From positions 16,177 through 80,176 of the forward strand of contig CAZJAT010000004.1 in NCBI GenBank assembly GCA_964544145.1: 64,000 nt of DNA, read 5' to 3'. This document shows, in pieces, positions 32,835 to 54,307 of the stretch. The notes under the pieces were generated by a model, which worked only from the letters and a program-made list of their open reading frames with translations, did no database searches and was not told the DNA's origin. The number at the start of each line of letters is the position of its first letter. The first letter of the stretch is position 1. Source of the DNA: an uncultured Bacteroidales bacterium (GTDB taxonomy: Bacteria > Hydrothermota > 32-111). A program made the position numbers and the translations under genes.

Positions 32835-32847
32835 TTGTCTCCCCCTT

Positions 32848-34738: not shown

Positions 34739-34799
34739 TTTTTTCTTACTTTTTTTGCTGTGTCTCTGCTGCCTGTAGAGTATTTCAGTATGATTTGAA

Positions 34800-35612
34800 T
34801 TATAGTATTTCAATTTCTTTCTCCAGAGTAATTCCAAATGTATTGAAAACTGTTTTCTCAATTTTATCTGTAAGTTCAAGAAAATCACTATATCTTCCAT
34901 TGCCTTTATTTATTATAAAATTTGTATGTTTCTCTGATATACATATATCATTGATACAGAAACCGCGCATATGAACTTTGTCTATCAATTCCCAAGCATT
35001 ATAATCCTTATTCTTATAGACAGAACCGAGAGACCTCTCATTCATCGGCTGGATTTTATTACGGGTTTTCATTATAGAGTCAATGTTTTTTCTTATAGAA
35101 TGTTTGTCTATATTTTTCAGTAATAAAACACAGGATATTAAAATACTGTTAATGGAAGATTTTCTATATGAGAAATCAATATCATTTCTTTTAAGGATTC
35201 CATCTGATGCATGCACCTCATATATGAAATCTGATAGATTGATATTACCAGCTCCTGCATTCATTTTAATCATTCCTCCGATTGAGCCGGGGATTGGGAA
35301 TAGCTGTTCAAGACCGCCTATATTTATTTCAGCCAGTTTGTTTATAGCAGATTTGATTGTCATTTCACAGGGAATGCTTACAAGGGGACCGCTGGGGTCA
35401 ATGATCTCTATTGTATTAGCTGTTTGAATCCTTGCTAAATTCAAATTACGGGCATTTTCTGTAAATAGTATATTGGATGCATTGCCTATTACCTTAATAT
35501 TATCGGCATAATTCATATCATCTGTATTTTCCATTATTGTCATTCTGTCTATTACCGGCCCGATACCAATATATGATATGGAAGCCAGGTCAAAATTTTC
35601 AATGATTTGCAT
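34800..35612 (-). CDS. murB: UDP-N-acetylenolpyruvoylglucosamine reductase
   Basis: The N-terminal region looks like the MurB FAD-binding domain (KVIGNASNILF). Its position in the dcw cluster supports the call. At 270 aa it is short for MurB. Confidence 0.65.
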   Translation of the reverse strand: MQIIENFDLASISYIGIGPVIDRMTIMENTDDMNYADNIKVIGNASNILFTENARNLNLARIQTANTIEIIDPSGPLVSIPCEMTIKSAINKLAEINIGGLEQLFPIPGSIGGMIKMNAGAGNINLSDFIYEVHASDGILKRNDIDFSYRKSSINSILISCVLLLKNIDKHSIRKNIDSIMKTRNKIQPMNERSLGSVYKNKDYNAWELIDKVHMRGFCINDICISEKHTNFIINKGNGRYSDFLELTDKIEKTVFNTFGITLEKEIEIL

Positions 35613-36987: not shown

Positions 36988-37996
36988 AATGCAGTGTCTC
37001 TTTTATGATTTTATCAGTATTCTCTATAATCATAGTATCACTTTTATTATTAATATATTTCTCAATCAGAGAGATGATTCTTTCCTTGCTGAGACTGTTT
37101 TCATTCAGTGATGTTATATTGTGAGTTTTTTTCACATAATAATCTATATTCTTCTGCTGATGATTATCGGCAGCACTGGGTAATGGTATGAATATTGCAG
37201 GTTTTCCTGAATTGTAAATTTCAGCCAGGGACATAGCTCCTGCTCGGGATATAATAATATCAGCCTGATAATACAGTGAGCCCATATCTTCGGTGAAGGG
37301 AATCATTCTTACATATTCATTTTCCGTGACTTCATTCTTCAGCTTTGAACCGACAATTAAAATATTATATTTATCAATATCATTTAGAATTTCATAAATA
37401 TGCTTAAACATATTAAATGCTCCTTGAGATCCACCGCAAATTAGTATTACAGGCCTTGTGTTATTAAAGATGAGCTTGCCATTACTGTGAGGTTCTGCAT
37501 GTGAGCCTATAAAATGCCCTGTGAAAACATTTCTGTTTTTATTTATACCCCTGTATGGGACATCAAATCCTGTGAAAATATATTTTGCAGCAAGTGAAAA
37601 GAATCTGATATTTTTACCTGCAATAATATCCTGTTCCATCAGTATAATAGGTCTTGCCGTTATAAATGCGGCTAAACCTGCAGAGAATGACATATAAGAG
37701 CCCATAAGGAATACAGTGTCTATTCGGTTTCGCAAAATATATGCAATTACAATGAAAACAGAGAGGAAAATATTTAATACATCATTAAAGGATCCATACC
37801 CCTTATACTTAAGAATAAGCGGTTTGATATCTCTGCTTTCATATATTCTCTTTTCAATGTCTCTATTTCCGCAGACAAAGAATATACTGCTATTACTGAA
37901 TATTTTACTCAGCTCCAAAGCAGGTATTATATGGCCTCCTGTGCCTCCGGCGGCAATTAGAATATTCTCATGCATATTTTTTCTCATTTTTTGCAA
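36980..37996 (-). CDS. murG: UDP-GlcNAc:undecaprenyl-PP-MurNAc-pentapeptide GlcNAc transferase
   Basis: ILIAAGGTGGHIIPALEL is the MurG N-terminal signature. Confidence 0.85.
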   Translation of the reverse strand: MQKMRKNMHENILIAAGGTGGHIIPALELSKIFSNSSIFFVCGNRDIEKRIYESRDIKPLILKYKGYGSFNDVLNIFLSVFIVIAYILRNRIDTVFLMGSYMSFSAGLAAFITARPIILMEQDIIAGKNIRFFSLAAKYIFTGFDVPYRGINKNRNVFTGHFIGSHAEPHSNGKLIFNNTRPVILICGGSQGAFNMFKHIYEILNDIDKYNILIVGSKLKNEVTENEYVRMIPFTEDMGSLYYQADIIISRAGAMSLAEIYNSGKPAIFIPLPSAADNHQQKNIDYYVKKTHNITSLNENSLSKERIISLIEKYINNKSDTMIIENTDKIIKETLHYV

Positions 37997-39047
37997 TATT
38001 AATTAATAATCCCACAGCAATCATATTCATCAGAATGGAAGAACCGCCATAGGATATAAATGGTAATCCTAATCCTGTTGTGGGCAATAATTTCAATGAT
38101 ATGGCTATATGAATAAATGCTTTCATAACGATGAAAAAAGTAATGCCATATGCCAACATCTTATTAAATGGAGAATAAGCTCTTTTTGCTACATTCATGC
38201 CTGTATAGAAGAAAAAGAAAAATACCAGAATAATAATCAGTCCGCCTAAAAATCCGAGTTCCTCTCCTATTATAGAGAATATAAAATCGGAATATGCTTC
38301 CGGTATATAGAGAAGTTTTAATTTCCCCATGCCCAGGCCTTCTCCGAGAAAACCTCCATTCCCCATTGCAAGTATAGATGCTTGTGTCTGCTGTGATACG
38401 GGACTCTTGTTGACAAAAGACATCAATCGTGCCATTGCATGGGAATATCTCGGTATCATTGCAGCCCCAATACCGGCAATTGAAAGCACGGGAATGAGGA
38501 TATATTTTTTTGATATATCAGACATGAGAAACATGATAAATACGAAAAATCCCATAAGAAGTGCTGAAGATATGTTTGGTTCAACAAATATCAGACCCAA
38601 AACCGATACAATCATGATAAATATTACTGCAAACTGCTTAGGCGAATTATTCCTTATATCAGGAATTATTCTTGCAAGGAATATAATCATAGAAATCTCA
38701 GCCAGCTCGGACGGCTGAAATGTAAAAATCAAGATTTTAAACCATCTCCTTGCACCATTTATTTCCTTTCCCGCAAGCAGTACAGTGAAGAGAAGTATGA
38801 TTGATATTATAATAAGTAAAGGAGCAATGCGTTTTAAGAACTGAAGGGGAATAGATTTGGCTATAAAGAGACATACTATGCCGATAATTATAAAAATAAA
38901 CTGCCTTCTGAAAAAGTAGAATGGGTCATTATTGAAATTTTTATTCTGATAAGCGATAAAAGAGGATGAACTAAACAGCATAATCATACCAATAAGCAGA
39001 AGTATCATCACTATAATAAATATCTGCTGTTCTGTTTTCATTCCCAT
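37968..39047 (-). CDS. ftsW: SEDS-family peptidoglycan glycosyltransferase FtsW
   Basis: It is a polytopic membrane protein with the conserved FtsW/RodA layout. It lies between murD and murG. Confidence 0.75.
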   Translation of the reverse strand: MGMKTEQQIFIIVMILLLIGMIMLFSSSSFIAYQNKNFNNDPFYFFRRQFIFIIIGIVCLFIAKSIPLQFLKRIAPLLIIISIILLFTVLLAGKEINGARRWFKILIFTFQPSELAEISMIIFLARIIPDIRNNSPKQFAVIFIMIVSVLGLIFVEPNISSALLMGFFVFIMFLMSDISKKYILIPVLSIAGIGAAMIPRYSHAMARLMSFVNKSPVSQQTQASILAMGNGGFLGEGLGMGKLKLLYIPEAYSDFIFSIIGEELGFLGGLIIILVFFFFFYTGMNVAKRAYSPFNKMLAYGITFFIVMKAFIHIAISLKLLPTTGLGLPFISYGGSSILMNMIAVGLLINIAKNEKKYA

Positions 39048-40360
39048 TCTTTTATTTCCTCTTTAAATTTATTTCCTCTATCTGCAAAATCAGTGAACAT
39101 GTCAAATGATGCAAATCCCGGTGAGAAATTAATGGGCGCATCACTTACAGTGATTGAAAAAGCTTTTTTCACAGCATCATGAAGAGACTCAGCTTCAAAG
39201 ATGTTTTTATAATTTTTACTTATTAAATATTCTTTGACTACAGAAGTCGATTCTCCTATGAGAATAGCATTATGAGTATTCTTAATGACTGCATCAATAA
39301 TTATATCAATATCAAAATCTTTATTCCTTCCGCCCAGAATAACGGTTTGTCTCCCAGAGAGGGATTCTACCGAATTTTTGAAAGCTACGGGATTAGTGCA
39401 CATGGAATTATTGTAGATCCGGTGATTGTTTATGGTGCCGATATATTCCATCCTGTGGGGCATTGAAACGAGAGAATTTATATATTGCTGCGTATTTGAT
39501 TCGTTTTCATTAATTATATTGAATACGGCAATAGCCTGCATAAGATTTTCAATATTATGATTTCCCGGCAGCTTGAATTTAGTAATGTCAATTCTATCTT
39601 TACCAAAGTGTATGGAATTTCCTGAGTAGAAAATATCAGCATTTGTTTTCAATAATGATGTATATACAGTATTGGAATGTAAATTAACAGCATTAAGTAT
39701 ATCATCATCCATATTCAGCACAGCATAATCAGATTTATCCTGATTTCGGAAAATATTCATTTTGCAGTTTATATATGTTTCCATATCACCATGTCTGTTT
39801 AAGTGGTCAGGTGAGATATTTGTTATTACACCTATATGAGGATTGAATTTATCAACAGTTTCCAGTTGAAATGAGGATAATTCACATATTATTATTTCGG
39901 GTGAATGATTTAAGACAATTTCGCTCAGAGGTGTCCCGGGGCTTATGTTGCCGCCCAATTCAACATCTTTACCTGATGATTTCAATAATTGATAAGTGAG
40001 AAACGCAGTTGTTGATTTACCATTCGTACCTGTAATTCCAATAAAAACAGCATTGCTGAAATTGTAGGCAAATTCTATTTCAGGTATTACATGAATACCG
40101 GATTCAGATGCTTTTTGAATGAATGTATTGGAATACGGGATACCCGGACTTGTCACAATTATGTCATTATTGAGTATATTATCAGAATGCAGTGTTTCAT
40201 ATTCTGCATTGATTGATTTCATTATATTTCTCTCTTCAGCATTATAATCTGAATCAGAGGAAACAAACACATGGCCGCCTTTGCTGAATGCAAGTTTTGC
40301 AGCAGCTTGACCGCTTTTCTTAAATCCGAGAATGCATACTTGTTTGTTCCTGATATCCAT
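39038..40360 (-). CDS. murD: UDP-N-acetylmuramoylalanine--D-glutamate ligase
   Basis: AVFIGITGTNGKSTTA is the Mur ligase P-loop. Its position follows mraY. Confidence 0.85.
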   Translation of the reverse strand: MDIRNKQVCILGFKKSGQAAAKLAFSKGGHVFVSSDSDYNAEERNIMKSINAEYETLHSDNILNNDIIVTSPGIPYSNTFIQKASESGIHVIPEIEFAYNFSNAVFIGITGTNGKSTTAFLTYQLLKSSGKDVELGGNISPGTPLSEIVLNHSPEIIICELSSFQLETVDKFNPHIGVITNISPDHLNRHGDMETYINCKMNIFRNQDKSDYAVLNMDDDILNAVNLHSNTVYTSLLKTNADIFYSGNSIHFGKDRIDITKFKLPGNHNIENLMQAIAVFNIINENESNTQQYINSLVSMPHRMEYIGTINNHRIYNNSMCTNPVAFKNSVESLSGRQTVILGGRNKDFDIDIIIDAVIKNTHNAILIGESTSVVKEYLISKNYKNIFEAESLHDAVKKAFSITVSDAPINFSPGFASFDMFTDFADRGNKFKEEIKEWE

Positions 40361-40361
40361 T

Positions 40362-41432
40362 TTACCTCAATTTTAATGTACTTAATGCAAGAATGCCGAA
40401 TAATATTGAAATTATCCAGAATCTGACAACTATCTTAGATTCCGGAATACCCTTTAATTCAAATGTATGGTGAATCGGGGCCATAGGGAATATTCTCTTT
40501 TTGGTTAATTTAAAAGATATGACCTGAAGAACAACAGACATTGTTTCAATAGCAAACATACCACCTGCAATAAGCAGGAGAATCTCCTGTTTCAATAGCA
40601 CAGCAGATGCGCCCAGAATACCGCCTAATGTCAATGAACCCGTATCACCCATGAATATTTCTGCCGGATGTGTGTTATACCAGAGAAAACCCAGTGATGA
40701 TGCAGCAGCAGCAGCCAAATATACTGAAATTTCCCCACTGCCGGGAATATACTTCATATTAAGATATGTGCAAAATACAGCATTGCCCGATACATAGGCA
40801 ATTGCTGTGAAAACCGTGAATATTATTCCAAGCATGCCGGCTGCAAGGCCATCAAGTCCATCGGATAAATTAACGGAATTTGAAGCTACAGTCAGAACAA
40901 GCATAACAAAGGGAATAAAGAATACAGACAGATTAATCATCATATTCTTTAGCAGAATTATATTTGTCATTGTCCATATTCCATTATATGCAGGGCTATT
41001 GAGAACAAATAATGAAACAACAGTCCCCAAAGCCAATTGTGTAATAAGCTTATACCTCGGTATAACACCTGTTTTATTCTTTTTTTTCAGAATATCATCA
41101 ATCAGCCCCAATATACCTAAAGTGAGAGTAATTAAAATAAGCAAAATTATGAATGTATTGCTGAGATTTGCCCAAAGCAAAACACCTGTCAATATACTTA
41201 AAATGATTATTATACCGCCCATTGTCGGCGTTCCCGCTTTACTCATATGACGTTCGGGTCCATCACTCCTGATTGTTTCTCTTATATTGAGTTTTTTAAT
41301 AATTCTGATAATGTATTTTCCGACAAAGAAAGAAAAAAGCAGTGAGCTGACGGCTGCCATTGCAGCCCTGAATGTAATGTATGTAAATAATGCAATATTA
41401 TCTGATAAAGGCAATAATAATTTATAAAGCAT
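40362..41432 (-). CDS. mraY: phospho-N-acetylmuramoyl-pentapeptide transferase
   Basis: It is a polytopic membrane protein with the MraY loops NLSDGLDGLA and HHTFE. Confidence 0.85.
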   Translation of the reverse strand: MLYKLLLPLSDNIALFTYITFRAAMAAVSSLLFSFFVGKYIIRIIKKLNIRETIRSDGPERHMSKAGTPTMGGIIIILSILTGVLLWANLSNTFIILLILITLTLGILGLIDDILKKKNKTGVIPRYKLITQLALGTVVSLFVLNSPAYNGIWTMTNIILLKNMMINLSVFFIPFVMLVLTVASNSVNLSDGLDGLAAGMLGIIFTVFTAIAYVSGNAVFCTYLNMKYIPGSGEISVYLAAAAASSLGFLWYNTHPAEIFMGDTGSLTLGGILGASAVLLKQEILLLIAGGMFAIETMSVVLQVISFKLTKKRIFPMAPIHHTFELKGIPESKIVVRFWIISILFGILALSTLKLR

Positions 41433-41434
41433 AA

Positions 41435-42748
41435 TTACATATCCTTTAAGTGATTAATAATTTCTTCCATAGCCATTCCTCTGCTTCCTTTGATTAATAT
41501 TACATCGTTTTTTTCCAGTTTAATGGATACATAATCGGATAATTCATCTTTGCTGTTAAAATGTCTGTCCCTGTAATCCCGTATATAATTCTCACTGAAT
41601 TTACCAATAGCCCATATCATATCAATGTTTTTTTCATTTGCATATAATGCAATTTCTTTATGCAATTCCGCACTCTGTTTTCCCAATTCAAGCATATCAC
41701 CGAGAATTGCAATTTTCCTGCCTTTAAATCTTGACAATACATCTAATGCATTTTTCATTGATGCAGGGGATGCATTATATGTGTCATCAATCATTAGTAT
41801 ATCGCCTGTCTGTGAAATATTCAGCCTGCTGTGAGGCATTGAAAAGTTTTTCAATGCATATTCAATATTTACCGGAACATCCTTATATTCATTCTTAAAT
41901 GCATATAGAGCCAGAATCATCTGTAAAGCTCCTGAGCCGGGAATGTTTATTTTATATTCATTGCCATTGATGACGAGTTCTGCATTATCCTGATTTAATT
42001 TAAATGAGCAAGGATGATAATCATTGTCAGGGCCTATGCCGAATGTTCTATATCTGACATGACCGGGTATATGTTTCAATACCATTCTATTATCACCATT
42101 TATAAGAAGAACAGAGGATGTATTCATTGATTCAAGGATTTCCATTTTTGCTTCAATCAAATCTTCAAATGATGCAAACATTCCAATATGTGAATCATTT
42201 ATTGTTGTTATTATTACTGCATGCGGCTTTATCATTTGAGAGATTTCATTTAATTCTCCTTTTTGATTCATGCCTGCTTCCAATACTGCAAATTCGGTCT
42301 CTTTTTCTATTCTCAGTATATTCTGTGTCACACCTATAAGATTGTTTGTATTGCCTTTTGTCTTTATTTTATTCTTGCTTTCTATTGCATCATAGAGCAG
42401 ATCTTTTAAAGAGGTTTTCCCCGTAGAACCGGTTATTGCAATATTCATTGAATTCATTTGAGATGCATAATGAGCTGCAATTTTGTTATATGCAGACAAT
42501 GTATTATTGACAAGAACATAGGGATAATCTGATTGTATGTTTTTTTCAGAAATAAAGCATGTGCAGCCGTTTTTCAATGCACTATCAATAAAATCATGGC
42601 CATCATAATGAACTCCCTTTATCGGTATAAATAGGGTGTCAATGGATTCCTGTCTTGAATCAGTGCATATATTCCTTATGCATATATCGTTATTATTCAG
42701 AGTGCCGCCTGTTATACGGGCAATTGAGGATAATTGATAATCAATCAT
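41435..42748 (-). CDS. murF: UDP-MurNAc-tripeptide--D-Ala-D-Ala ligase
   Basis: The Mur ligase P-loop is IAITGSTGKTS. Confidence 0.8.
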   Translation of the reverse strand: MIDYQLSSIARITGGTLNNNDICIRNICTDSRQESIDTLFIPIKGVHYDGHDFIDSALKNGCTCFISEKNIQSDYPYVLVNNTLSAYNKIAAHYASQMNSMNIAITGSTGKTSLKDLLYDAIESKNKIKTKGNTNNLIGVTQNILRIEKETEFAVLEAGMNQKGELNEISQMIKPHAVIITTINDSHIGMFASFEDLIEAKMEILESMNTSSVLLINGDNRMVLKHIPGHVRYRTFGIGPDNDYHPCSFKLNQDNAELVINGNEYKINIPGSGALQMILALYAFKNEYKDVPVNIEYALKNFSMPHSRLNISQTGDILMIDDTYNASPASMKNALDVLSRFKGRKIAILGDMLELGKQSAELHKEIALYANEKNIDMIWAIGKFSENYIRDYRDRHFNSKDELSDYVSIKLEKNDVILIKGSRGMAMEEIINHLKDM

Positions 42749-44188
42749 TTACAGATACTTCCTTATTTCTTCGCTATCATCAAAATGGTGTTTTTTATTA
42801 TTAATTATCTGATATGTCTCATGTCCTTTTCCTGCAATAACTACAGTATCACCGTGTTTTGCCATACGCATAGCCATCTCTATTGCTTTTTTTCTGTTTA
42901 ATTCAATCATATAGTTTCTTTCTTTTATTCCGGAGAGAATGTGATTGATAATACTGGCCGGATTTTCAAATCTTGGATTATCTGTAGTTATAATAACAGA
43001 ATCTGAATAATGGGAAGCTATTTTACCCATAATAGGTCTTTTTTCCCTGTCTCTGTCGCCTCCGCATCCGAATACGGTTATAAGATTGCCCTCAGTAAGA
43101 CGTTTGGCTGTTTTTAAAACCCTTTCAAGTGCGTCAGGCGTATGTGCATAATCCACTATTCCGGTGACACCTTTGTCGGATGAGAATGTTTCAAAGCGTC
43201 CGGGAACAACAAATGTACTATTATTGATAATGGAACATAATTTATCCGCATCAAATCCCATATAAAAAGCGCTGAGAAACGCAAAACATGTATTATATAT
43301 ATTATAATCGCCAATAATGTTGATGCTAAGCTCAAATGATTTATTTAATTCTTCATTCTTTAGAACAAAAGAGCTGCCTGTGATAGAAATACGTTTAATA
43401 TCAATTGTCCATTGAGCTTTACGATTTCTGAGTCCCAATGAATGATAAATAGTGTATGCATCTTCAAATTGTTTATGATATTTATCATCTGCATTAACTA
43501 TTGTGTGTGCATCTTCCTTCATCATGCCGAACAGTTTTAATTTGGATAGCATATAGTCATCCATTGTTTTGTGATAATCCATATGGTCCTGGGTGAGATT
43601 TGTGAATACTGCGCTGTCAAACAGAATGCCATCAACTCTTTTCTGTTTTAATCCGTGAGAACTTATCTCCATAATAATATATTTGACATTTTCATTCTTC
43701 ATTTGTTCAAAAAGCCTGTATATTGTCAGAGAGTCAGGTGTGGTATTTTTGGCTTCTATGATGCTGTCGCCGATCATATGCTTGATTGTGCCGATTAAAC
43801 CCGTTTTGCCGTATTTATCCAATATGCCCTTGAGTATATATGAAGTGGTTGTTTTGCCGTTTGTACCTGTAATGCCGATTATTCGGAAATCATTATTATT
43901 AAAACCGTAAAAGCGTTTAGCTATTATTGCAGTGGTCTTGGCGATTTGGTCTGTCACCAATTGCGTAGAATCAACATTCATATGTTCCTGTTCACTAATC
44001 ACTGCAATAGCACCATTTTTAACCGCTTCTTCTATATGGGTATTACCATCTTCAATACTTCCTTTAATTGCTATAAAAATATATCCCTGTTTTATTTCTC
44101 TGGAATCAGAACTTATACCGCAAATAATATGATCAGAGAAATGAACTTTTTTAAGTGAAATGCCTTCAATTAAATGACTCAATTTCAT
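42749..44188 (-). CDS. murE: UDP-MurNAc-L-Ala-D-Glu--2,6-diaminopimelate (or Lys) ligase
   Basis: IGITGTNGKTTTSYIL is present. The longest ORF extends to 44293, inside ftsI. The internal ATG at 44188 gives an ATGA overlap with the ftsI stop and is the more likely start. Confidence 0.8.
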   Translation of the reverse strand: MKLSHLIEGISLKKVHFSDHIICGISSDSREIKQGYIFIAIKGSIEDGNTHIEEAVKNGAIAVISEQEHMNVDSTQLVTDQIAKTTAIIAKRFYGFNNNDFRIIGITGTNGKTTTSYILKGILDKYGKTGLIGTIKHMIGDSIIEAKNTTPDSLTIYRLFEQMKNENVKYIIMEISSHGLKQKRVDGILFDSAVFTNLTQDHMDYHKTMDDYMLSKLKLFGMMKEDAHTIVNADDKYHKQFEDAYTIYHSLGLRNRKAQWTIDIKRISITGSSFVLKNEELNKSFELSINIIGDYNIYNTCFAFLSAFYMGFDADKLCSIINNSTFVVPGRFETFSSDKGVTGIVDYAHTPDALERVLKTAKRLTEGNLITVFGCGGDRDREKRPIMGKIASHYSDSVIITTDNPRFENPASIINHILSGIKERNYMIELNRKKAIEMAMRMAKHGDTVVIAGKGHETYQIINNKKHHFDDSEEIRKYL

Positions 44189-45948
44189 GTCTGAATGTCC
44201 TTTGTGGGTTTTATTAAGTGTCTGTATTGCTTCATTCCCAGAAGTCCCTGTGCAATATCTCTGAATAATGGTGCTGCAACCTCTGATCCCCAATAAACAC
44301 CACGCGGCTCATCAACCGTTACTATCATTATTATCTCGGGATTTTCTGCAGGGAAATAACCGGCAAAAGATGAAACAAATTGTCCTTTCTGATATCCGCC
44401 TGATGATGAACTTTTCTCAGCAGTACCTGTTTTACCAGCTATTGTTATACCCGGTATGGATGCCTTTATTCCTGTACCGCATAGAACAACATCAATGAGC
44501 ATTTCATTCAATTTGTCTGCTGTGGATTCTTTTAGGATACGTTTCTTTGAAGAATTTGAGTAATTTTCCTTATCAACTGTTTTTATGATTGTCGGTTTAA
44601 CATAATAACCTTTATTTGCAACAATATTGTATGCGGCAATCATCTGTAATGCAGTTACGCTAACCCCTTGACCAAAACAGATATTTGCCTGATGAATTGG
44701 TATCCACTCCCTTTCATTGAGAAGAAGACCTTTCTGTTCACCCGGTAATCCGATATTTATCCGCTTATTGATACCCATTGCATTAATCATTACATAGAGG
44801 AGACGTTTTCCCACTTTATTGCCAATATTAACAAAACCGATATTGCTAGATTCAATAAAACTCTCTTTGAATGTAAGCTGACCACTTTCATGAGCATCAG
44901 TAATTATATGACCATTTATAATGAGTGAATCCTCGCCAGCTTTTTTTACAATATCTTGCTCATCAATAACATTATATTCAAGGGCAGCAGCTGCAGTGAT
45001 AAGTTTGAATATAGATCCCGGTTCATAGAGCGAAAGAATGGAATAATTCTTACATGCAGATGGATCCCCTCTGCCAAGCAGATTGGATTCATATGAGGGA
45101 TAGTTTGCCATTGCGAGAATTTCTCCTGTCTTCACATTCATAATGATGACATTCCCGCTTTTTGCTTTATACTTATCAACATAATTCTGCAGATTGAAAT
45201 ATGCAATCTGCTGTATCTTTGAATCAAGGGTAAGTACTATAGGAGCTCCTTTTTGAGCCAATTTGTCCTTATATGATGGATGCTTAAATATCTTTCCATT
45301 GGGTTTCCTCTGATATTGGATATATCCGTTCTCTCCCTTCAGCTGATCATCAAATCCGTATTCAAGACCTTCAAGTCCTGAATAATCAATACCGACAAAT
45401 CCTATTACACCGGAAAATACCTCTGCATTATTGTAATAGCGGATTTTCTCCCTTTTTATTATGATTGCATCGGAATGGATGTCTGATATCATTGCCACAT
45501 ATGATTGCGGAATATTGTAATAGAGGGGAATATAATCAAAGGATTCATTGAGTTTACTTATTATCTCCTGATAGGGCATCAATCCTGTATTGGCAATCTT
45601 ATGAGCAAGACCTTCTGTATCCTTAATCATCTTTTTTGTGATATACAGATTATCACATAATATATTTGTTGCAATTATGTTTCCCTGTCTATCCATAATA
45701 TCGCCTCTCTCAGCTCTATCTATCATAATAAGGCGATTTTTCTGCAGGCAAATCTTTTCAATTCTCTTATTATCAATCAATTGAATTGTAATCATTTTTG
45801 CAATAATTATAGCTGTAAACACAGTCAACATGATAACAGTTATGGCGATTTTTTTATTAATTTTCTTGGAGTATTGCTGTATATTCTTTATCATCATCTC
45901 AGGGTGCATAATCATCTCCAGTAGGGAAGTGCATGGATAATGAATCAA
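44185..45948 (-). CDS. ftsI: peptidoglycan D,D-transpeptidase FtsI (class B PBP)
   Basis: It has an N-terminal TM and the motifs SIFK (SxxK), SSN and KTGTA. The true start is probably one of the ATGs at 45894-45915 rather than 45948, which overlaps ftsL. Confidence 0.8.
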   Translation of the reverse strand: MIHYPCTSLLEMIMHPEMMIKNIQQYSKKINKKIAITVIMLTVFTAIIIAKMITIQLIDNKRIEKICLQKNRLIMIDRAERGDIMDRQGNIIATNILCDNLYITKKMIKDTEGLAHKIANTGLMPYQEIISKLNESFDYIPLYYNIPQSYVAMISDIHSDAIIIKREKIRYYNNAEVFSGVIGFVGIDYSGLEGLEYGFDDQLKGENGYIQYQRKPNGKIFKHPSYKDKLAQKGAPIVLTLDSKIQQIAYFNLQNYVDKYKAKSGNVIIMNVKTGEILAMANYPSYESNLLGRGDPSACKNYSILSLYEPGSIFKLITAAAALEYNVIDEQDIVKKAGEDSLIINGHIITDAHESGQLTFKESFIESSNIGFVNIGNKVGKRLLYVMINAMGINKRINIGLPGEQKGLLLNEREWIPIHQANICFGQGVSVTALQMIAAYNIVANKGYYVKPTIIKTVDKENYSNSSKKRILKESTADKLNEMLIDVVLCGTGIKASIPGITIAGKTGTAEKSSSSGGYQKGQFVSSFAGYFPAENPEIIMIVTVDEPRGVYWGSEVAAPLFRDIAQGLLGMKQYRHLIKPTKDIQT

Positions 45949-46147
45949 CAGCTACCCTATGTAATCTCTCATATGACATAAGGTGATTTATTTCAAGGGA
46001 GAGTTTCATATATCTGCCTTTTGCACTTTCATATTCCTTTTCATGTTCATTTATCAGCATTGTAAGCTGTAATACATAGAATCTGGTCCAGGTTATCATA
46101 AAGAGAATTATTGCAATAATTAAAATATTCATTGCCTGTTTCTTCAT
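45899..46147 (-). CDS. ftsL: cell division protein FtsL-like (TM plus coiled coil)
   Basis: The small bitopic protein MKKQAMNILIIAIILFMITW... lies between rsmH and ftsI. The start is chosen to give an ATGA overlap with rsmH. Confidence 0.55.
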   Translation of the reverse strand: MKKQAMNILIIAIILFMITWTRFYVLQLTMLINEHEKEYESAKGRYMKLSLEINHLMSYERLHRVAVDSLSMHFPTGDDYAP

Positions 46148-46992
46148 GCAATCCTCTCTGCGCATCTGAGTTTAGCACTTCTTGCACGCTTATTACGTTT
46201 GACTTCCTCATAATGAGGTTTAACGGTTTTTTTATTGATCAATATGAAATCATCATTATTCTTAAAAAAATATTTGACAATTCTATCCTCAAGCGAATGA
46301 TAGGATATTACAACAATTCTGCCGTTTCCTTTCAGCAATTGAGGTGCTTTTTCCAGAAATTTCTCAAGACTGCCTAATTCATCATTGATAAATATACGTA
46401 ATGCCTGGAATACCCTGCGCAAAGCAAATTTGACACCCCTGCCTCTGCATCCTTCAATAATTGCATTCTTCAAGTCAAATGTTGTATTCATTTTGTTGTG
46501 CATTGCTGCTTTCTTAATTGCAATAGCAATATCAGCGGCATTATGCTGTTCCGAATAACGCTCAATAATTGAAGCAATCTTCTCAGCAGGGACATTGTGA
46601 AGAAAATCAATGAGTGACAGATTCTCTGTATTATTCATCCTCATATCAAGAGGTGCATTGAAACGAAATGAAAAACCTCTGTCAGCATTATCAATCTGAT
46701 ATGAAGAAACACCCAAATCAAGCAATATCCCGTCAAATGTTATTTCAGAATCAAAATCTGCAAAATTCATATGCATAATCTCAATATTGGATGATGTGAA
46801 GTGGTCATTCAGGTAATCAATAGCCTGAGCATCCCTGTCAATCATAATCAATCGACCTTCTTTTTCTAATCGTTTAAAAATCTCTACAGAGTGTCCGCCA
46901 AAGCCGGCTGTACAGTCAAGATAAATACCGTTTTTTCTGATATTGAGAAAATCAATTGTATCATTCAATAATACAGGTATATGAATGTTCAT
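46144..46992 (-). CDS. rsmH: 16S rRNA (cytosine1402-N4)-methyltransferase
   Basis: The N-terminal HIPVLLNDTIDFL ... GIYLDCTAGFGGHS is the MraW/RsmH signature. Confidence 0.85.
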   Translation of the reverse strand: MNIHIPVLLNDTIDFLNIRKNGIYLDCTAGFGGHSVEIFKRLEKEGRLIMIDRDAQAIDYLNDHFTSSNIEIMHMNFADFDSEITFDGILLDLGVSSYQIDNADRGFSFRFNAPLDMRMNNTENLSLIDFLHNVPAEKIASIIERYSEQHNAADIAIAIKKAAMHNKMNTTFDLKNAIIEGCRGRGVKFALRRVFQALRIFINDELGSLEKFLEKAPQLLKGNGRIVVISYHSLEDRIVKYFFKNNDDFILINKKTVKPHYEEVKRNKRARSAKLRCAERIA

Positions 46993-47336
46993 ATGAACAT
47001 TTTGCCGGATATTGCATGCTTTGCAGACAGCAAATCCGGAGTAATATCATAAAAAAAACGATAATGAACCAAACTGAAGATAGCTATTATATAGGGGTCT
47101 GTACAAATGATTTTCAAATCGCGGCCATTGATCTTTAATTGCTCTCTCATATGCTCCAGTCTATGAGCAAATCTGTAATGCATATGATTTATATGTCTCA
47201 GATCTATGATAACGGATTTTTCTGAGCACATCAGCTGTCTATTAAGACGTGTCATATCAGCAGAGTCATGTGCGTCAATTGTTCCCTTGATGCTGAGCAG
47301 GAAGTATCTGTTTTTTTCACAAATACTGTAATGCAT
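46989..47336 (-). CDS. STAS-domain (anti-sigma-factor-antagonist-like) protein inserted between mraZ and rsmH
   Basis: At 115 aa it fits the SpoIIAA/STAS layout: YFLLSIKGTIDAHDSADMTRLNRQL then SVIIDLRHINHMHYRFAHRL then LKINGRDLKII. No Ser or Thr sits at the usual phospho-site. Its stop overlaps the rsmH start (ATGA). Its start lies 1 nt after the mraZ stop. Confidence 0.55.
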   Translation of the reverse strand: MHYSICEKNRYFLLSIKGTIDAHDSADMTRLNRQLMCSEKSVIIDLRHINHMHYRFAHRLEHMREQLKINGRDLKIICTDPYIIAIFSLVHYRFFYDITPDLLSAKHAISGKMFI

Positions 47337-47337
47337 T

Positions 47338-47775
47338 TTATAGTCCTATAGATTTGAGGGTTTTCTTGTGCTTTTCTTCTATTGTGCGCATATTCTTATC
47401 AAATTCTTCGGGTTTCCATAACTCAATTCTGTCCATTGCTCCAATGATGAGGACTTCATCCTCAATACCCGCTTTCTTCATCAGATTTGCAGGGATCTTG
47501 ATTCTTCCATGAGAATCTGCCTGTGTATCCTCTGCTGATGAATATATATAGTTTTTGATTATTGTTTTATCCTCTTCATTTAATGTTTCCATAAGCTTCT
47601 GCTCAAAAGCCCTGAATGCATCATCAGGATATAGAATGAGATGATTCTCTGATGATGGTATTACAGTAAAGTCATTGGTCATGATCTGTTTTCTCAATTT
47701 AGAGGGAATAATCACTCTTCCCTTGTTATCTATCTTGAACCCGTAGGTTCCTTTGAATGAATATCTGCTCTCCAT
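47338..47775 (-). CDS. mraZ: transcriptional regulator MraZ
   Basis: MESRYSFKGTYGFKIDNKGRVIIPSKLR and a second DxxGR-type repeat (DSHGRIKIP) are present. The longest ORF starts with GTG at 47805. The ATG at 47775 is favoured. Confidence 0.8.
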   Translation of the reverse strand: MESRYSFKGTYGFKIDNKGRVIIPSKLRKQIMTNDFTVIPSSENHLILYPDDAFRAFEQKLMETLNEEDKTIIKNYIYSSAEDTQADSHGRIKIPANLMKKAGIEDEVLIIGAMDRIELWKPEEFDKNMRTIEEKHKKTLKSIGL

Positions 47776-47834
47776 ATTACTCCACTTTGTTCCATTTTTT
47801 ACCACATTCTACTAATTTTAACCCATTATGTCAA
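47776..47834 (-). promoter_or_regulatory. mraZ/dcw promoter (TTGACA-N17-TAGAAT) with three 10-bp-phased (A/G)TGG(A/T) direct repeats (candidate MraZ operator)
   Basis: The minus strand reads cTTGACAtaatgggttaaaattagTAGAATgtggtaaaaaatggaacaaagtggagtaatATG. GTGGT, ATGGA and GTGGA are spaced exactly 10 nt apart. Confidence 0.45.
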
Positions 47835-47960: not shown

Positions 47961-48881
47961 ATGAAAAAATGGACAATTATTATTGAGAATGAGTTCATGG
48001 GAAACCATAAACCCAAAATATTTTGTATAACATCCAGTCAGATGCGTAATATTGCTGTTGTGCTTATATCAATTGCAGTCTTTTCTGCAGGTGTTTTTGT
48101 TATTGCAAAAGTCAATCATCTTGACCCCAATGCAAAATTCTCATTGAATGCAAGAAAATATATGCTCATACGTGATGTACAGAATAAGAATACACATATT
48201 GATAATTTGATTGGGAATATGGAATCCTTTGTTATGATGGAAAAATCATTACGAACACTGGCCAATCTTGAGCCGGTTCCCGAGGATGTGCGCAAGCTTG
48301 GTATAGGCGGTTATACTGTTTCTGACAGCAGGATTGAACATATTGACGGTTCAATGAAAAAAGTACTGACAAATCTTGATAACAGACTCTTCCAGGCACA
48401 GAATATTATTGATTTTGAAGTGGATAATGTTGATGACATTAATATCAATCTTTCAGAGCAGTATAATCTATTAAAACACAAACCATCAATTATGCCTACA
48501 TATGGATGGATCACCTCAAAATTCGGTGAGAGAAAGGATCCTTTTACCGGTAAGAAAGAATTCCATCCGGGTATTGATATTGCCAATGATTACAATACAC
48601 CTATTTATGCATCTGCAGATGGTGAAGTGATATATGCAGGCGTTCTTTCGGGCTATGGCAATGTGATTAAAATTGACCATGGATATGGATATATAACTAT
48701 GTATGCACACCTTAAAAAGATACTTGTAAGTAATGGAACAAAGGTTTCCAGGCATCAATTAATTGCAAAAATGGGCAGCACTGGAAAATCCACAGGTCCT
48801 CATCTGCACTATGAGGTGAGACTCTTCAATAAAAAAACAGATCCATTTAAATTTATTGACAGAGACACTGTTGTTCGCTAA
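47961..48881 (+). CDS. M23 family (LytM-domain) peptidoglycan endopeptidase, membrane anchored
   Basis: HPGIDIA (HxxxD) and HLHYEV (HxH) are the zinc ligand motifs. An N-terminal TM is present. Confidence 0.85.
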   Translation: MKKWTIIIENEFMGNHKPKIFCITSSQMRNIAVVLISIAVFSAGVFVIAKVNHLDPNAKFSLNARKYMLIRDVQNKNTHIDNLIGNMESFVMMEKSLRTLANLEPVPEDVRKLGIGGYTVSDSRIEHIDGSMKKVLTNLDNRLFQAQNIIDFEVDNVDDININLSEQYNLLKHKPSIMPTYGWITSKFGERKDPFTGKKEFHPGIDIANDYNTPIYASADGEVIYAGVLSGYGNVIKIDHGYGYITMYAHLKKILVSNGTKVSRHQLIAKMGSTGKSTGPHLHYEVRLFNKKTDPFKFIDRDTVVR

Positions 48882-49813
48882 TGGACATTTCTGGAAAGTT
48901 ATTTCTTGCCCCTTTAGCCGGGATCACCGATTCAATATTCAGAAAAATATGTAAACAGAATGGTGCTGATTTTGTATGTACTGAGCTGGTTTCCGTAGAA
49001 GCGCTTTTATATGAGAATGAGAGAACAATGAGTATGCTTGATTTCTCTGCTGATGAAAAGCCTATAGGTGTTCAGCTCTTCGGAAGCAAAGCATCCTCTT
49101 TCAAAACGGCAGTTAAATCAATTGAACACCTTGATTATGATTATTTAGATATCAATATGGGATGTTCAGTGAAAAAGGTTCTGAAAACAGGCAGTGGTGC
49201 GGCATTACTCAAAGATACAGGGAATATATTCCAAATTGTTAATGCAGTAAAAAAAGTTTCAAAAAAACCTGTATCCTGTAAAATACGGCTTGGATTCAGT
49301 GAAAATAATGGAATTGAAATAGCAAAAGCAATTGAAGAGGCAGGGGCTGATTTCATAACAGTTCACGGACGTCTGGCTATTCAAAAATTTAATGGTATGT
49401 CCGATTGGGATTCCATTGGAAGAATAAGGGATAGTATACAAATACCGGTTATAGGGAATGGCGATATATTCACTTACAATGATGCTTTGAATAAAATCGG
49501 AAAAACTGATGCAATCATGATTGGAAGAGGTGCCATGGGAAATCCATGGATATTCAGGCAGATAAAGGAATGTATATCAAAAAAAGAGACAATTTTTGTT
49601 CCTAATACGCATGACAGAATAATGCTTCTGAAATCTCATTATGAAATGGGAGATACAGAAAATGACAATTATATCCGTACAATGAGAAAGTATTTTCACT
49701 GGTATTCAAAGGGTATACATAGTATTAGAAAATACAGGGAGAAGATAAACAATACAACTGATTATTCTGTAATAAAGGAAATTATACATGAAATCGACCA
49801 AGAAGTGGTTTGA
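48881..49813 (+). CDS. dus: tRNA-dihydrouridine synthase
   Basis: DINMGCSVKKV (the NxGCP-type motif) and a TIM-barrel FMN layout are present. A TAATG overlap couples it to the upstream gene. Confidence 0.8.
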   Translation: MDISGKLFLAPLAGITDSIFRKICKQNGADFVCTELVSVEALLYENERTMSMLDFSADEKPIGVQLFGSKASSFKTAVKSIEHLDYDYLDINMGCSVKKVLKTGSGAALLKDTGNIFQIVNAVKKVSKKPVSCKIRLGFSENNGIEIAKAIEEAGADFITVHGRLAIQKFNGMSDWDSIGRIRDSIQIPVIGNGDIFTYNDALNKIGKTDAIMIGRGAMGNPWIFRQIKECISKKETIFVPNTHDRIMLLKSHYEMGDTENDNYIRTMRKYFHWYSKGIHSIRKYREKINNTTDYSVIKEIIHEIDQEVV

Positions 49814-50531
49814 TTACAATGAAGTTGCTGCATATTACAATGAATTAATGAGATATATTCCATATGATAAATGGGCACATTATATTGTAAAGATGTTTTT
49901 TCTCCATAATGGCAGGGGAAATAAAACTGCAGACTTGGGATGCGGCACATGTTCGCTTGATAGGGAATTGTCACAGAGAGGTATGGAAATAACAGGTATT
50001 GACATATCTTTTCAGATGCTTTCAGAGGCAATGAGAGGTGCTGAACGGATAAATCATAATATGATCAATGGTAATATTACAGATATGCCGGTTAAGAATG
50101 AATCATTCAATCTTCTTGTGAGTATGTATGATACTGTCAATCACCTTAATGATAATCAATTCCGCTTATTTGCATCTGAGAGTCACAGAATACTTGCTGA
50201 TAGCGGAATTTTAATGTTTGATTTTAATACAAAGGAAGGATTGCAGTCATTTGCTTCAGATGATTTTATAAGAAAAGGCAATGAATTCACATCATTCTGG
50301 AATATGAAAACTGATGAAAATTATGAATTCTGTACATTGCATCTATCAATAAAAAATACTGATGGAACATTCAAAGAAATGAAGTTTTCCGAGAGGGCTA
50401 TTGAATCAGAGGAAATACTTAAAGTAATGAATGAAAGCGGCTTTAGTGAAATTCATCTATATGATTTCCTCACTGAAGATGTAATGAACAAAATGGATGA
50501 AAGAGGATTTGCGGTATGTATAAAGACATAG
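49788..50531 (+). CDS. class I SAM-dependent methyltransferase
   Basis: Motif I is ADLGCGTCSL. The post-I acidic residue context is present. Confidence 0.7.
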   Translation: MKSTKKWFDYNEVAAYYNELMRYIPYDKWAHYIVKMFFLHNGRGNKTADLGCGTCSLDRELSQRGMEITGIDISFQMLSEAMRGAERINHNMINGNITDMPVKNESFNLLVSMYDTVNHLNDNQFRLFASESHRILADSGILMFDFNTKEGLQSFASDDFIRKGNEFTSFWNMKTDENYEFCTLHLSIKNTDGTFKEMKFSERAIESEEILKVMNESGFSEIHLYDFLTEDVMNKMDERGFAVCIKT

Positions 50532-51691
50532 CTGTATTGGACCTTCATATTCACACAAAATATTCCATTGCATGTTCAAGGGATGCTGATCTAGAAGGGT
50601 ATTCTCAACTGGGATTGAAAAAAGGAATAGATTATCTTGGTACAGGGGATATGTTTAAATCAGAGCATCTTGATGATATGAAAAAACATTTGTCAGAATG
50701 TGATAAGGGTGTTTATGAATATCATAAGCAGAAATTTTTTATTACAGGTGAAATATCACTAATATACAGGGAACATGATATTGTTAAAAAGGTTCATCTT
50801 CTGCTGATATTGTCTTCAGTAAAATCCGCATATGCTTTAAAGAAAATATTTTCTGCTTATGGAAAGCTGGAGTCAAATGGAAGACCGATTCTCAAAATAT
50901 CTGTCAGGGATGCTGTCCGAATGGTCAAGGATTTAGATAATGATGCAATCATTATTCCTGCACATATCTGGACACCTCATTTCGGAATTTTAGGGAAAAA
51001 ATCAGGATATGATTCGCTTCATGAATCAATTGAACACATTGAGTATTTCAGTGCATTGGAAACAGGATTATCATCTGACCCTGCAATGAATAGATATGTG
51101 GAAGAATTGGATGTTTTTAATCTGGTATCATTCTCTGATGCCCATTCTCCAGGCAGAATCGGCCGTGAATTTACATATGTAAAGAGTAAAGGCTTAAATA
51201 TAAATACATTAAAAGATGCATTAGAGAATAAAAATGATATGCTGATAGGAACAGCCGAATTCTATCCGCAGGAAGGGAAATATTTTGCATCAGGTCACAG
51301 AAAATGCAATTATTCAACATTGAATAATGAGCACATCTGTCCTGTATGCAATAAAACGCTTACAGATGGCGTGATGAGCCGTATAAAACAATTATCTTCA
51401 AGAAAATCACCTATTGCCCATAATAAAGAAGTGATATATGTATTACCTCTTGAATTGATTGCAAAGATGCTGAAAAAGAGAAAAATGGGTAAATCGGAAA
51501 AATCCATTCTTAAAATACTAGGTGATGCAATGCCTGAATCTCATCTTAAGGCATTTGCAGATAAAATTGAAATTGACAGGATACTGCCTTATGGTATAGG
51601 ATATATGATAGAAAAAATTAGAAAGGGAAAACTGAAATTTAATCCCGGATTTGACGGTGTATATGGTCAGCCTGTATTCAAGGAGGAATAA
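50516..51691 (+). CDS. PHP-domain metal-dependent phosphoesterase family protein
   Basis: The N-terminal LDLHIHTKYS (HxH) is the PHP signature. A Cys pair CPVCNK is present. It is about 390 aa. Confidence 0.5.
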   Translation: MYKDIAVLDLHIHTKYSIACSRDADLEGYSQLGLKKGIDYLGTGDMFKSEHLDDMKKHLSECDKGVYEYHKQKFFITGEISLIYREHDIVKKVHLLLILSSVKSAYALKKIFSAYGKLESNGRPILKISVRDAVRMVKDLDNDAIIIPAHIWTPHFGILGKKSGYDSLHESIEHIEYFSALETGLSSDPAMNRYVEELDVFNLVSFSDAHSPGRIGREFTYVKSKGLNINTLKDALENKNDMLIGTAEFYPQEGKYFASGHRKCNYSTLNNEHICPVCNKTLTDGVMSRIKQLSSRKSPIAHNKEVIYVLPLELIAKMLKKRKMGKSEKSILKILGDAMPESHLKAFADKIEIDRILPYGIGYMIEKIRKGKLKFNPGFDGVYGQPVFKEE

Positions 51692-52164
51692 TGGAACATA
51701 AATGGGCTCCATGGCGTATGGAATATATAGAGCAGAAGAAATCAGAAGATTGTATTTTCTGCAATAAAGAAGAGGAAATGGTAATAATGGATAATGAAGA
51801 GTTTATAATAATGATGAATAAGTTTCCATACAATAATGGACATATTATGGTGGCCCCACTGAAACATAATACAATGCTTGAAGCTTTATCCGAAGATGAG
51901 AGTAATAATTTAATGAGAGGTATTCAATTGGGCATTTCAATAATTAAGCGGGCATATCAACCTGATGGAATTAATGTCGGAATCAATATGGGGCAGAGTG
52001 CAGGAGCGGGAATAGATGATCATCTTCATGTACACATAGTCCCCAGATGGAATGGAGATACAAATTTTATGCCTATTTTTGCAGATACAAAATTGATATC
52101 TGAAGGACTGGCACAGACAAAAATCAGATTACAGAAAGCATTAAAGGAGCTGCAGAATGAATGA
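51691..52164 (+). CDS. HIT-family nucleotide hydrolase/transferase
   Basis: HLHVHIVPR is the histidine triad. It is 157 aa. Confidence 0.8.
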   Translation: MEHKWAPWRMEYIEQKKSEDCIFCNKEEEMVIMDNEEFIIMMNKFPYNNGHIMVAPLKHNTMLEALSEDESNNLMRGIQLGISIIKRAYQPDGINVGINMGQSAGAGIDDHLHVHIVPRWNGDTNFMPIFADTKLISEGLAQTKIRLQKALKELQNE

Positions 52165-52645: not shown

Positions 52646-54307
52646 TTGAGTACAATGATTATTATGGGAAATAGAAAGAGGTTAATCTATAGTTTATTTA
52701 CTATTGCACTAATTGCCATTATTCTTATAGGGATAAATCAGATCTTCATCAGTGACTATATATTCCGTTCTATTATGAGGAATCATAATAATACCATGAA
52801 ATCAGTGCTCAGTATATCAAAGACAGGTATATATCAATATCTCAGTTCATTAAAGTCGAATATTGAAACATTGACGGATCAGAATGATATAATGGATTTC
52901 AATGAGAATGGCAAGCATATTCTGGAACGGTTTCAATTAAAGTATAGAGATGTTTTTTCCAATGTTACCCGTATTGATGAAAAAGGCAATATACAGTATA
53001 CTGTTCCATTTGATGAAAAAGCAGTCGGGCGCAATGTGCTCTTTCAGGAACATAATAAGAAATTATTCCGTTTGAAAATCCCTATTATTTCAGCTCCTTT
53101 TGATGCTGTTCAGGGGTATAAAGCAATTGCAATTGCCATACCTGTTTTCAGGGATAGTATCATGATAGGTTCTGTAACAGGATTAATTCCATTTGATGTA
53201 ATATGGGATCTTTACATTTCACGCATAAATATTATGGAAAAGTCATTATTTATTGTATGTGATAATGATGGAAATATTATATATGGAATTGGAGGGGAAT
53301 GGAATGGCAATATTGATAATTTGAAGGATATAGAGTATTCATATACATTTTCACCTGATACAGGTGATTGCCCATTCATTTCCGAAGAGATTGTCTTTAT
53401 ACCTGAATGGAAGGGTGAATATGCTGTTATTGCTGACAAGATGGATATAAATGGCAATACATGGCATATCATATCATTGACATCTACTGATGATCTTAAA
53501 TTAAGGGGTATTAATATAGCCAGTACTCAGAGGGTTTTCACATATATTATCATTATTTTATTTGTACTTTTATCTGCAATTTTTCTAATTATATACAGTA
53601 TGGAATCAGAGAGAATGAGTTTGAAGATGAGAAATGCAATGGATATGAGTATTAAGATGGGCAAAGAAAAACAATTTTTTGAAGATGTGCTCAACAATTT
53701 ATTGGCAATGAAGCAGATTCTGATAATAATTATTGATGCTCACGGCGGGATTCATTTTATATCAAGACAGTATAAATATATCAATGATAATTTTTATAAA
53801 TTGATTGACAATAAACAAGCAGAAAAAATACGAAAAAATATTGAATTTTCACGCATTGCCAAGCAGGGATTTATGTCTATATTGAATCTTGGCAATGATA
53901 AAAGTAAAAACAGGTTTTTATTTTCAATTACCCCTGTATCAATGAATGAAGATGAGTATTCTGTTCTGATTGGTTTCCCTTATAATGAAAAAATGCCCCT
54001 TGCGACAAATGATATGAGTATTCATATCTTAGAGTGGTTCAATAGCGGCAATCCTAAAGCACTTTTAGATACATCCGGCAATATCATTATAGCAAATAAT
54101 ATGTTTACTTCTATGTTCCGACAAAACACTGCTTCTGTATGGGGAAATGAGAGCAAAAGGGTTATTAATGCCATAAAATGTTCAGTTAATGATATTCAGG
54201 ATATTACATTGAATATTCAATATGCCGGTAAGGGTATTATATTGAGAATATCTCCTATTATCAGTCCAATGCTGAAGGTCAATTATATTGCTGTTGATAT
54301 TCAGTAA
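52646..54307 (+). CDS. membrane sensor-like protein (TM - periplasmic Cache-like domain - TM - cytoplasmic PAS-like region) with no recognisable output domain
   Basis: TM1 is LIYSLFTIALIAIILIGINQIF. A soluble segment of about 260 aa follows. TM2 is VFTYIIIILFVLLSAIFLIIY. A cytoplasmic domain of about 230 aa follows. I see no HATPase, GGDEF or MCP motifs. Confidence 0.35.
   Translation: MSTMIIMGNRKRLIYSLFTIALIAIILIGINQIFISDYIFRSIMRNHNNTMKSVLSISKTGIYQYLSSLKSNIETLTDQNDIMDFNENGKHILERFQLKYRDVFSNVTRIDEKGNIQYTVPFDEKAVGRNVLFQEHNKKLFRLKIPIISAPFDAVQGYKAIAIAIPVFRDSIMIGSVTGLIPFDVIWDLYISRINIMEKSLFIVCDNDGNIIYGIGGEWNGNIDNLKDIEYSYTFSPDTGDCPFISEEIVFIPEWKGEYAVIADKMDINGNTWHIISLTSTDDLKLRGINIASTQRVFTYIIIILFVLLSAIFLIIYSMESERMSLKMRNAMDMSIKMGKEKQFFEDVLNNLLAMKQILIIIIDAHGGIHFISRQYKYINDNFYKLIDNKQAEKIRKNIEFSRIAKQGFMSILNLGNDKSKNRFLFSITPVSMNEDEYSVLIGFPYNEKMPLATNDMSIHILEWFNSGNPKALLDTSGNIIIANNMFTSMFRQNTASVWGNESKRVINAIKCSVNDIQDITLNIQYAGKGIILRISPIISPMLKVNYIAVDIQ

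Follow-up and report, generated by a model that had tools for sequence, protein, structure and literature searches.

A STAS-domain gene without a phosphorylatable serine separates mraZ from rsmH in the division and cell wall cluster of uncultured bacteria

Background

In the SpoIIAA-SpoIIAB and RsbV-RsbW complexes, the face through which the antagonist binds its partner has two parts, one being the beta3-alpha2 loop plus the N-terminal end of helix alpha2, the other the beta4-alpha3 segment. A STAS domain may also be joined to a repressor. In CapS, a STAS domain fused to a winged helix-turn-helix (wHTH) repressor is regulated by the kinase CapK and governs repressor oligomerisation (PMC13373217). 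Canonical and non-canonical stand-alone STAS proteins have been reviewed, and those treated in the pertinent part of that review all retain the serine (PMC8256260). The mraZ-rsmH pair at the head of the cluster of division and cell wall genes (dcw) ranks among the most conserved gene pairs in bacteria, and a third gene held between its two members constitutes a natural experiment. Full-text literature searches turned up no paper in which STAS occurs alongside dcw, or alongside both mraZ and rsmH. Here we describe such a third gene, encoding a stand-alone STAS-fold protein of 115 residues, in a 64,000-nucleotide stretch of contig CAZJAT010000004.1 (assembly GCA_964544145.1; hereafter the window) from an uncultured bacterium. 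An earlier note on this DNA had described a serine-less STAS gene embedded in the dcw cluster and had suggested a regulatory partner-switch or ligand sensor wired into cell division, and the analysis reported below supports that overall interpretation.

Results

Fold and switch site of the STAS protein

The STAS fold that had been proposed for the product from its sequence pattern is borne out by Pfam, by structure prediction and by structural search. The protein matches PF01740 (29.8 bits, curated cutoff 22.6, E 5e-7), its residues 8-100 aligning with positions 7-101 of the 106 in the model, and ten of 15 family members individually match the same model at E <= 0.01. As a single sequence the protein matches the solved anti-sigma antagonist TM1442 at E 4e-5, while a profile of the family matches both TM1442 (E 2.9e-7) and SpoIIAA (E about 0.008). 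An AlphaFold2 model calculated from a 16-sequence alignment (pLDDT 90.3, pTM 0.84) has the element order b1-b2-a1-b3-a2-b4-a3-a4 with a four-stranded sheet, which is the STAS arrangement. A Foldseek search against the PDB with this model placed RsbV, TM1442, RsbS and SpoIIAA at the top (probability 1.0, TMq 0.75-0.83). By sequence threshold and by fold topology alike, the protein belongs to the STAS superfamily. It is not the STAS domain of an SLC26/SulP transporter, as the open reading frame (ORF) stands alone between the stop of mraZ and the start of rsmH and codes for 115 residues only.

The motif DLRHINHMHYR, quoted in the earlier note as the place where the usual phosphorylatable serine is replaced, is indeed encoded in this gene and the replacement holds. 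Serines S59 of TM1442 and S58 of SpoIIAA align with Tyr54, the first residue of helix alpha2 in the AlphaFold2 model, and the aspartates before them (D58 and D57, respectively) align with His53 in both HMMER alignments. The switch position is occupied by Y, F, I or Q in 16 of 16 family members and never by S or T, and the family motif of this region reads DLRxVxHxH[YF]R. The Ser or Thr that follows an Asp at the alpha2 N-terminus of phospho-regulated antagonists is therefore absent. The STAS protein derives from an anti-sigma antagonist of the SpoIIAA/RsbV type that has lost both the phospho-Ser and the preceding Asp. A His-x-His metal site in the same motif was considered and dismissed, since the Stahlbacteria subgroup has other residues in place of His51 and His53.

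The most conserved block of the family lies further along the chain, at KIICTDPYIIAIF (family form KIICTDPYIxSI), where Tyr82 is invariant and Pro81 nearly so; this block corresponds to the canonical STAS 'sP.v' segment. Both conserved blocks carry residues specific to the family and, judged by topology, probably form the face that STAS proteins canonically present to a partner. Core-clade STAS proteins are basic (pI 8.5-10.1; the median for the window is 6.6). P0009 and P0017, the members furthest from them, are acidic (pI 5.5-6.1) and keep a canonical look, with a DLSSV motif and a STAS_2 match.

The STAS gene and its operon

Flanking genes were identified with Pfam and NCBIfam models, and their identities confirm that the extra ORF sits between mraZ and rsmH in a dcw cluster. 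The coordinates, all on the minus strand, likewise agree with the junctions described earlier. The ATG of the STAS ORF (47336..47334) begins one nucleotide past the mraZ stop, the single base 47337 separating it from the TAA (47340..47338), and its TGA (46991..46989) shares an ATGA overlap with the rsmH ATG (46992..46990). Such tight packing with both neighbours suggests translational coupling. An AGGA located about 8 nt 5' of the STAS ATG is set by the last codons of mraZ (47338..47352, minus strand), Ile-Gly-Leu/Ile (ATAGGAnTn-TAA), which are conserved at equivalent positions in the related loci L016-L024; it could be a built-in ribosome-binding site for reinitiation at the STAS ATG. Beyond rsmH the cluster continues in the order ftsL-like, ftsI, murE, murF, mraY, murD, ftsW, murG, murC, murB-like, ftsQ-like, ftsA and ftsZ.

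A near-consensus promoter and an operator of four MraZ boxes, recognised by a published box definition (PMC12957436), precede mraZ. The four-box pattern matches once in the window against zero matches expected by chance; it occurs once per related locus, at the mraZ start, and likewise in gammaproteobacterial and verrucomicrobial controls. A mechanical reading of the mraZ ORF extends to a GTG at 47805 that falls inside the operator, so that the true start is probably the ATG at 47775. What looks like a conserved N-terminal peptide, 'VKNG.KW', in a number of loci (L012 and L013 of Verrucomicrobia among them) is translated operator. With the promoter and the four boxes upstream, the STAS gene lies inside a canonical MraZ-autoregulated transcription unit.

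Homologous loci and distribution

A word-indexed protein search returned nothing but the identical protein, carried by four metagenome contigs of a single study. The orphan status that this suggested was overturned by exhaustive searches. With phmmer, nine relatives at E <= 0.001 (25-50% identity, 107-131 aa) emerged from 1.84 billion representatives, and a profile search recovered 12 proteins, one of them from a metagenome-assembled genome (MAG) at NCBI labelled Candidatus Stahlbacteria (placed by NCBI now under Candidatus Stahliibacteriota). The NCBI members are annotated 'hypothetical protein' and most lack a precomputed Pfam hit. Gene context was obtained through the STAS homologues P0007, P0015 (two contigs), P0017 and P0006 and, independently of the STAS sequence, through the neighbouring RsmH of three relatives at 58-61% RsmH identity; one further partial locus came from a metagenome scan with a narrowed alignment. 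The earlier note had proposed a survey of related genomes for a gene in this position. All of the other loci (9 of 9) have a family gene of 107-115 aa in the mraZ-rsmH interval, with STAS identities of 24-50%. Of the eight complete loci, seven show a gap of 1-2 nt to mraZ and a junction with rsmH of -4 (an overlap) to +3 nt. Between sub-lineages STAS identity (24-36%) is similar to that of MraZ (30-52%) and FtsL (26-40%) and lower than that of RsmH and FtsI.

The RsmH relatives form a tight group of short proteins (280-283 aa, 56-61% identity), and the STAS gene is present in all three of its members whose context was looked up. Below this group RsmH identity falls to 46% or less (Ignavibacteriota and others), and in L025, the nearest outgroup and the first protein checked below the gap, mraZ overlaps rsmH directly without a STAS gene. 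Control loci with mraZ next to rsmH were taken from an RsmH-seeded contig scan (Proteobacteria, Verrucomicrobia and Firmicutes/Actinobacteria MAGs; relatives <=44% identical), and 7 of 7 have no space for an extra gene and no STAS match. The STAS gene is thus not a core dcw gene, which would hold its position across bacterial phyla. The insertion is lineage-specific, fixed in Candidatus Stahlbacteria and relatives, plus a second, distant lineage represented by L019 (55% GC, RsmH 34% identical), where a family member occupies the same slot.

In the L019 locus (1861..2755) the STAS protein is acidic with the more canonical DLSSV motif, and FtsI carries a PASTA domain; this arrangement may be the ancestral state of the insertion. 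In neighbour-joining trees, MraZ and RsmH of L019 do not group with the core clade. The mraZ-STAS-rsmH arrangement is either old, with losses, or was acquired twice. Core-clade RsmH is itself of a short form. Six residues are missing from about residue 84 onwards, as is a Cys-rich loop of 18 residues (CxCPP...CxCG) close to the C-terminus; Ignavibacterium, outgroup P0029 and L019 all have this loop. Covariation of short RsmH with the STAS gene was dismissed, L019 having both the STAS gene and the loop.

Selection and coding statistics

The closest pair of loci for which DNA was available, L016 and L017, encode STAS proteins of 77% identity, with a nonsynonymous value (pN) of 0.144 and a synonymous value (pS) of 0.728. 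The corresponding pN/pS values of the neighbours are 0.096/0.742 for mraZ and 0.174/0.783 for rsmH, and purifying selection on the STAS gene is comparable to that on either. The codon-usage check gave a divided result. The STAS frame is the clear best of six in the window by codon statistics, while its coding score of 0.16 ranks last among the 50 window genes scored (minimum otherwise 0.20), probably because of an odd composition; its His content of 7.8% is the highest of any window gene. Taken together, the conserved loci, pN/pS and codon frame establish the ORF as a real gene under purifying selection.

Features of the window

Table 1 Coordinates of the STAS gene, its operon and other features of the window
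Feature	Position	Strand	Remarks
Stand-alone STAS-fold protein gene	46989..47336	-	ATG start, 115 aa, pI 9.1, 7.8% His
DLRHINHMHYR, residues 45-55	47172..47204	-	strand beta3, beta3-alpha2 loop, first turn of alpha2
Tyr54 codon, phospho-Ser position	47175..47177	-	by alignment to TM1442 S59 and SpoIIAA S58
KIICTDPYIIAIF, residues 75-87	47076..47114	-	strand beta4 and start of helix alpha3
mraZ	47338..47775	-	145 aa from ATG 47775; PF02381 97 bits, TIGR00242
rsmH	46144..46992	-	282 aa, short form; TIGR00006 283 bits
MraZ operator	47772..47805	-	four RTGG boxes, 6-nt spacers, 10-nt phase; overlaps mraZ start codon
Sigma-70-like promoter	47806..47834	-	TTGACA-17-TAGAAT, 11/12 consensus; directly upstream of the RTGG boxes
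Remaining co-directional dcw cluster	31698..46165	-	ftsL-like to ftsZ
ftsQ-like ORF	34085..34900	-	no Pfam match
murB-like ORF	34800..35612	-	270 aa
Divergent block upstream of mraZ	47961..52164	+	
Peptidase C25 protein	4282..7674	+	1130 aa
Peptidase C25 protein	18490..22977	+	1495 aa; type IX sorting domain
ORF with type IX sorting domain	50..493		
ORF with type IX sorting domain	55595..57559		
Sensor-domain protein	52646..54307	+	553 aa

The divergent block upstream of mraZ shows full or partial synteny across the lineage (L016, L020 and L023). It is composed, in order, of an M23 peptidase with an N-terminal transmembrane/coiled region, Dus, a class I methyltransferase, a 391-aa familyless protein and a HIT protein. 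The M23 (EnvC/LytM-like) gene stands back-to-back with the dcw promoter, which may be a division-related pairing. Within the dcw cluster, the ORF between murC and the ftsQ-like ORF is MurB-like by eye and overlaps the annotated start of the latter by about 100 nt; the real start of the ftsQ-like protein is probably further downstream. Elsewhere, the window encodes two large proteins of the peptidase C25 (gingipain) family, and C-terminal sorting domains of the type IX secretion system (T9SS) occur in the longer of these and in two other ORFs. These domains point to a secretion system of the FCB (Fibrobacterota-Chlorobiota-Bacteroidota) type in the source organism, and the sorting domains along with the affinities of RsmH suggest that the organism belongs near FCB. 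The 553-aa protein has a HK/GC/chemotaxis-type sensor domain without a recognisable output domain, and gives a sub-threshold match to the histidine-kinase dimerisation domain (E 0.028).

Discussion

The canonical contact face is kept in the STAS protein in recoded form, a bulky aromatic residue and an Arg standing where the small Asp-Ser-Ser-Gly loop would be, and we therefore regard a GHKL kinase as an unlikely partner and an operon product as a likelier one. Phospho-regulated antagonists are recognised by their linkage to a GHKL kinase or PP2C phosphatase, and that linkage is missing within the 64-kb window and the related flanks. A Pfam scan of the approximately 55 window ORFs detected no RsbW/SpoIIAB-type kinase, PP2C phosphatase or sigma factor, and the gene tables of the nine related loci contain no such kinase, phosphatase or sigma gene. 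We tentatively favour a protein that binds, independently of phosphorylation, a partner encoded in its own operon. Made from one transcript in a fixed ratio with MraZ and RsmH, the STAS protein would have its dose set by dcw transcription and by the tight packing of the genes. The partner would be bound without phosphorylation through the beta3-alpha2 loop, the alpha2 N-terminus and the beta4-alpha3 turn, and the candidates would be the products of the same operon, MraZ before the others. The STAS protein might then tune MraZ oligomerisation or operator binding, and the pair would act as a trans version of STAS-controlled repressors such as CapS. The specific choice of MraZ as partner is doubtful. 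A dedicated phosphorylation-independent modulator of MraZ, whether anti-repressor or co-repressor and possibly bridging MraZ and RsmH, is similarly hard to regard as likely.

Several observations weigh against the favoured explanation. Tight packing is the rule throughout dcw clusters and thus does not single out MraZ or RsmH, and the argument for a STAS-MraZ or STAS-RsmH interaction is drawn from gene context and the conserved face. The gene of the distant lineage, L019, is flanked by gaps of 27 and 42 nt, and joint transfer of mraZ and the STAS gene between the two lineages was considered and is not supported by the neighbour-joining trees. The low coding score belongs on the same side. Finally, the search for a kinase covered 64 kb and short flanks of the other genomes, and a remote RsbW-like partner may lie beyond them.

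Such a partner is the basis of an explanation that we consider unlikely, in which the STAS protein still takes part in partner switching and antagonises an anti-sigma factor of the RsbW/SpoIIAB kind whose gene lies elsewhere in the genome. As it cannot be phosphorylated, the amount made through dcw transcription would determine its effect, and a sigma regulon would be coupled to division-gene expression. The closest relatives of the STAS protein in sequence and in structure are all anti-sigma antagonists, and the distant P0009 and P0017 still look canonical in motif, charge and STAS_2 match. Classical anti-sigma antagonists are acidic, whereas the core clade is basic (pI 8.5-10.1). The kinase-docking Asp-Ser-Ser-Gly loop has moreover become His-Tyr/Phe-Arg, no kinase, phosphatase or sigma gene accompanies the STAS gene in the window or any flank, and the stand-alone proteins in the part of the review concerned with them all keep their Ser (PMC8256260). 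Improbable in our view is a small-molecule or nucleotide sensor, whose STAS ligand would report metabolic state to the division machinery. Ligand binding is reported for some SLC26 and YtvA-type STAS domains. The fold required is established in the 115-aa protein, the window protein is unusually rich in His, and nucleotide and anion binding by STAS domains is on record (PMC5613929, PMC4964975). Against such a sensor, no nucleotide-binding motif was detected in the STAS protein, conservation of His51 and His53 does not extend to the Stahlbacteria subgroup, and similarity to transporter-type STAS domains is no better than that to anti-sigma antagonists.

The basic character of the core family (pI 8.5-10.1 against the window median of 6.6) and the placement of the gene between a DNA-binding repressor and an rRNA methyltransferase would also suit a nucleic-acid-binding accessory that contacts operator DNA, or rRNA together with RsmH. 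This seems decidedly improbable, as the distant members are acidic (pI 5.5-6.1) and a pI above 9 is also found in about 24% of window proteins. We know of no STAS domain that binds nucleic acid alone. CapS, for its part, relies on a fused wHTH domain (PMC13373217). A protein that assists an ATPase as one of its subunits (FtsE would be an ABC ATPase of this kind) would resemble MlaB, a stand-alone STAS protein that acts by binding MlaF and appears among the structural matches. Those matches rank far below the antagonists and no mla or ABC genes were found near the STAS gene, leaving this a very remote prospect. The lowest coding score in the window and a word-indexed search that returned only the query itself would be expected of a spurious ORF or a decaying insertion without function. 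A spurious ORF is ruled out by family conservation and by pN/pS (0.14/0.73); in nine further loci gene, length and position are all conserved, the structure is predicted with confidence and the frame is the best of six, so that we give this explanation practically no credence.

A Ser-less STAS gene in a division operon suggests an unrecognised extra control step on division genes. The insertion is confined to uncultured lineages and is an unexpected addition to a famously invariant gene pair, where it has been retained under purifying selection across a deep divergence (24-36% identity between sub-lineages). It adds a family of stand-alone STAS proteins without any phospho-site, and the gene names a candidate partner that can be tested heterologously with MraZ and its four-box operator. 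Should the STAS protein act on MraZ, the most conserved and least understood regulator of the bacterial division operon would have its first known input at the protein level, and a partner-switch fold would have been rewired from sigma-factor control to direct repressor control.

Comparison with known systems sets the locus beside four of them. The head of the cluster shares with the canonical dcw head (mraZ-rsmH-ftsL-ftsI) the promoter, the four GTG(G/T)-type boxes at 10-nt phase, the gene order and the tight packing, and differs from it by the one extra gene that separates mraZ and rsmH. Relative to the SpoIIAA/RsbV/TM1442 antagonists (PF01740), the phospho-Ser has given way to Tyr, Phe, Ile or Gln and the preceding Asp to His or Tyr; the core clade is basic and lacks linked kinase and phosphatase genes; and whereas those antagonists sit in sigma-factor operons, this gene sits between mraZ and rsmH. 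MlaB of the MlaFEDB lipid transporter is likewise a stand-alone STAS protein and acts by stable binding of a same-operon partner. The likeness to CapS, compared at the level of fold, lies in a STAS module tied to the transcriptional repressor of an adjacent operon. The STAS domain of CapS is fused and is switched by phosphorylation of Ser54, whereas here it is a separate polypeptide with neither the Ser nor a kinase nearby, and the repressor beside it, MraZ, is of the AbrB/SpoVT type.
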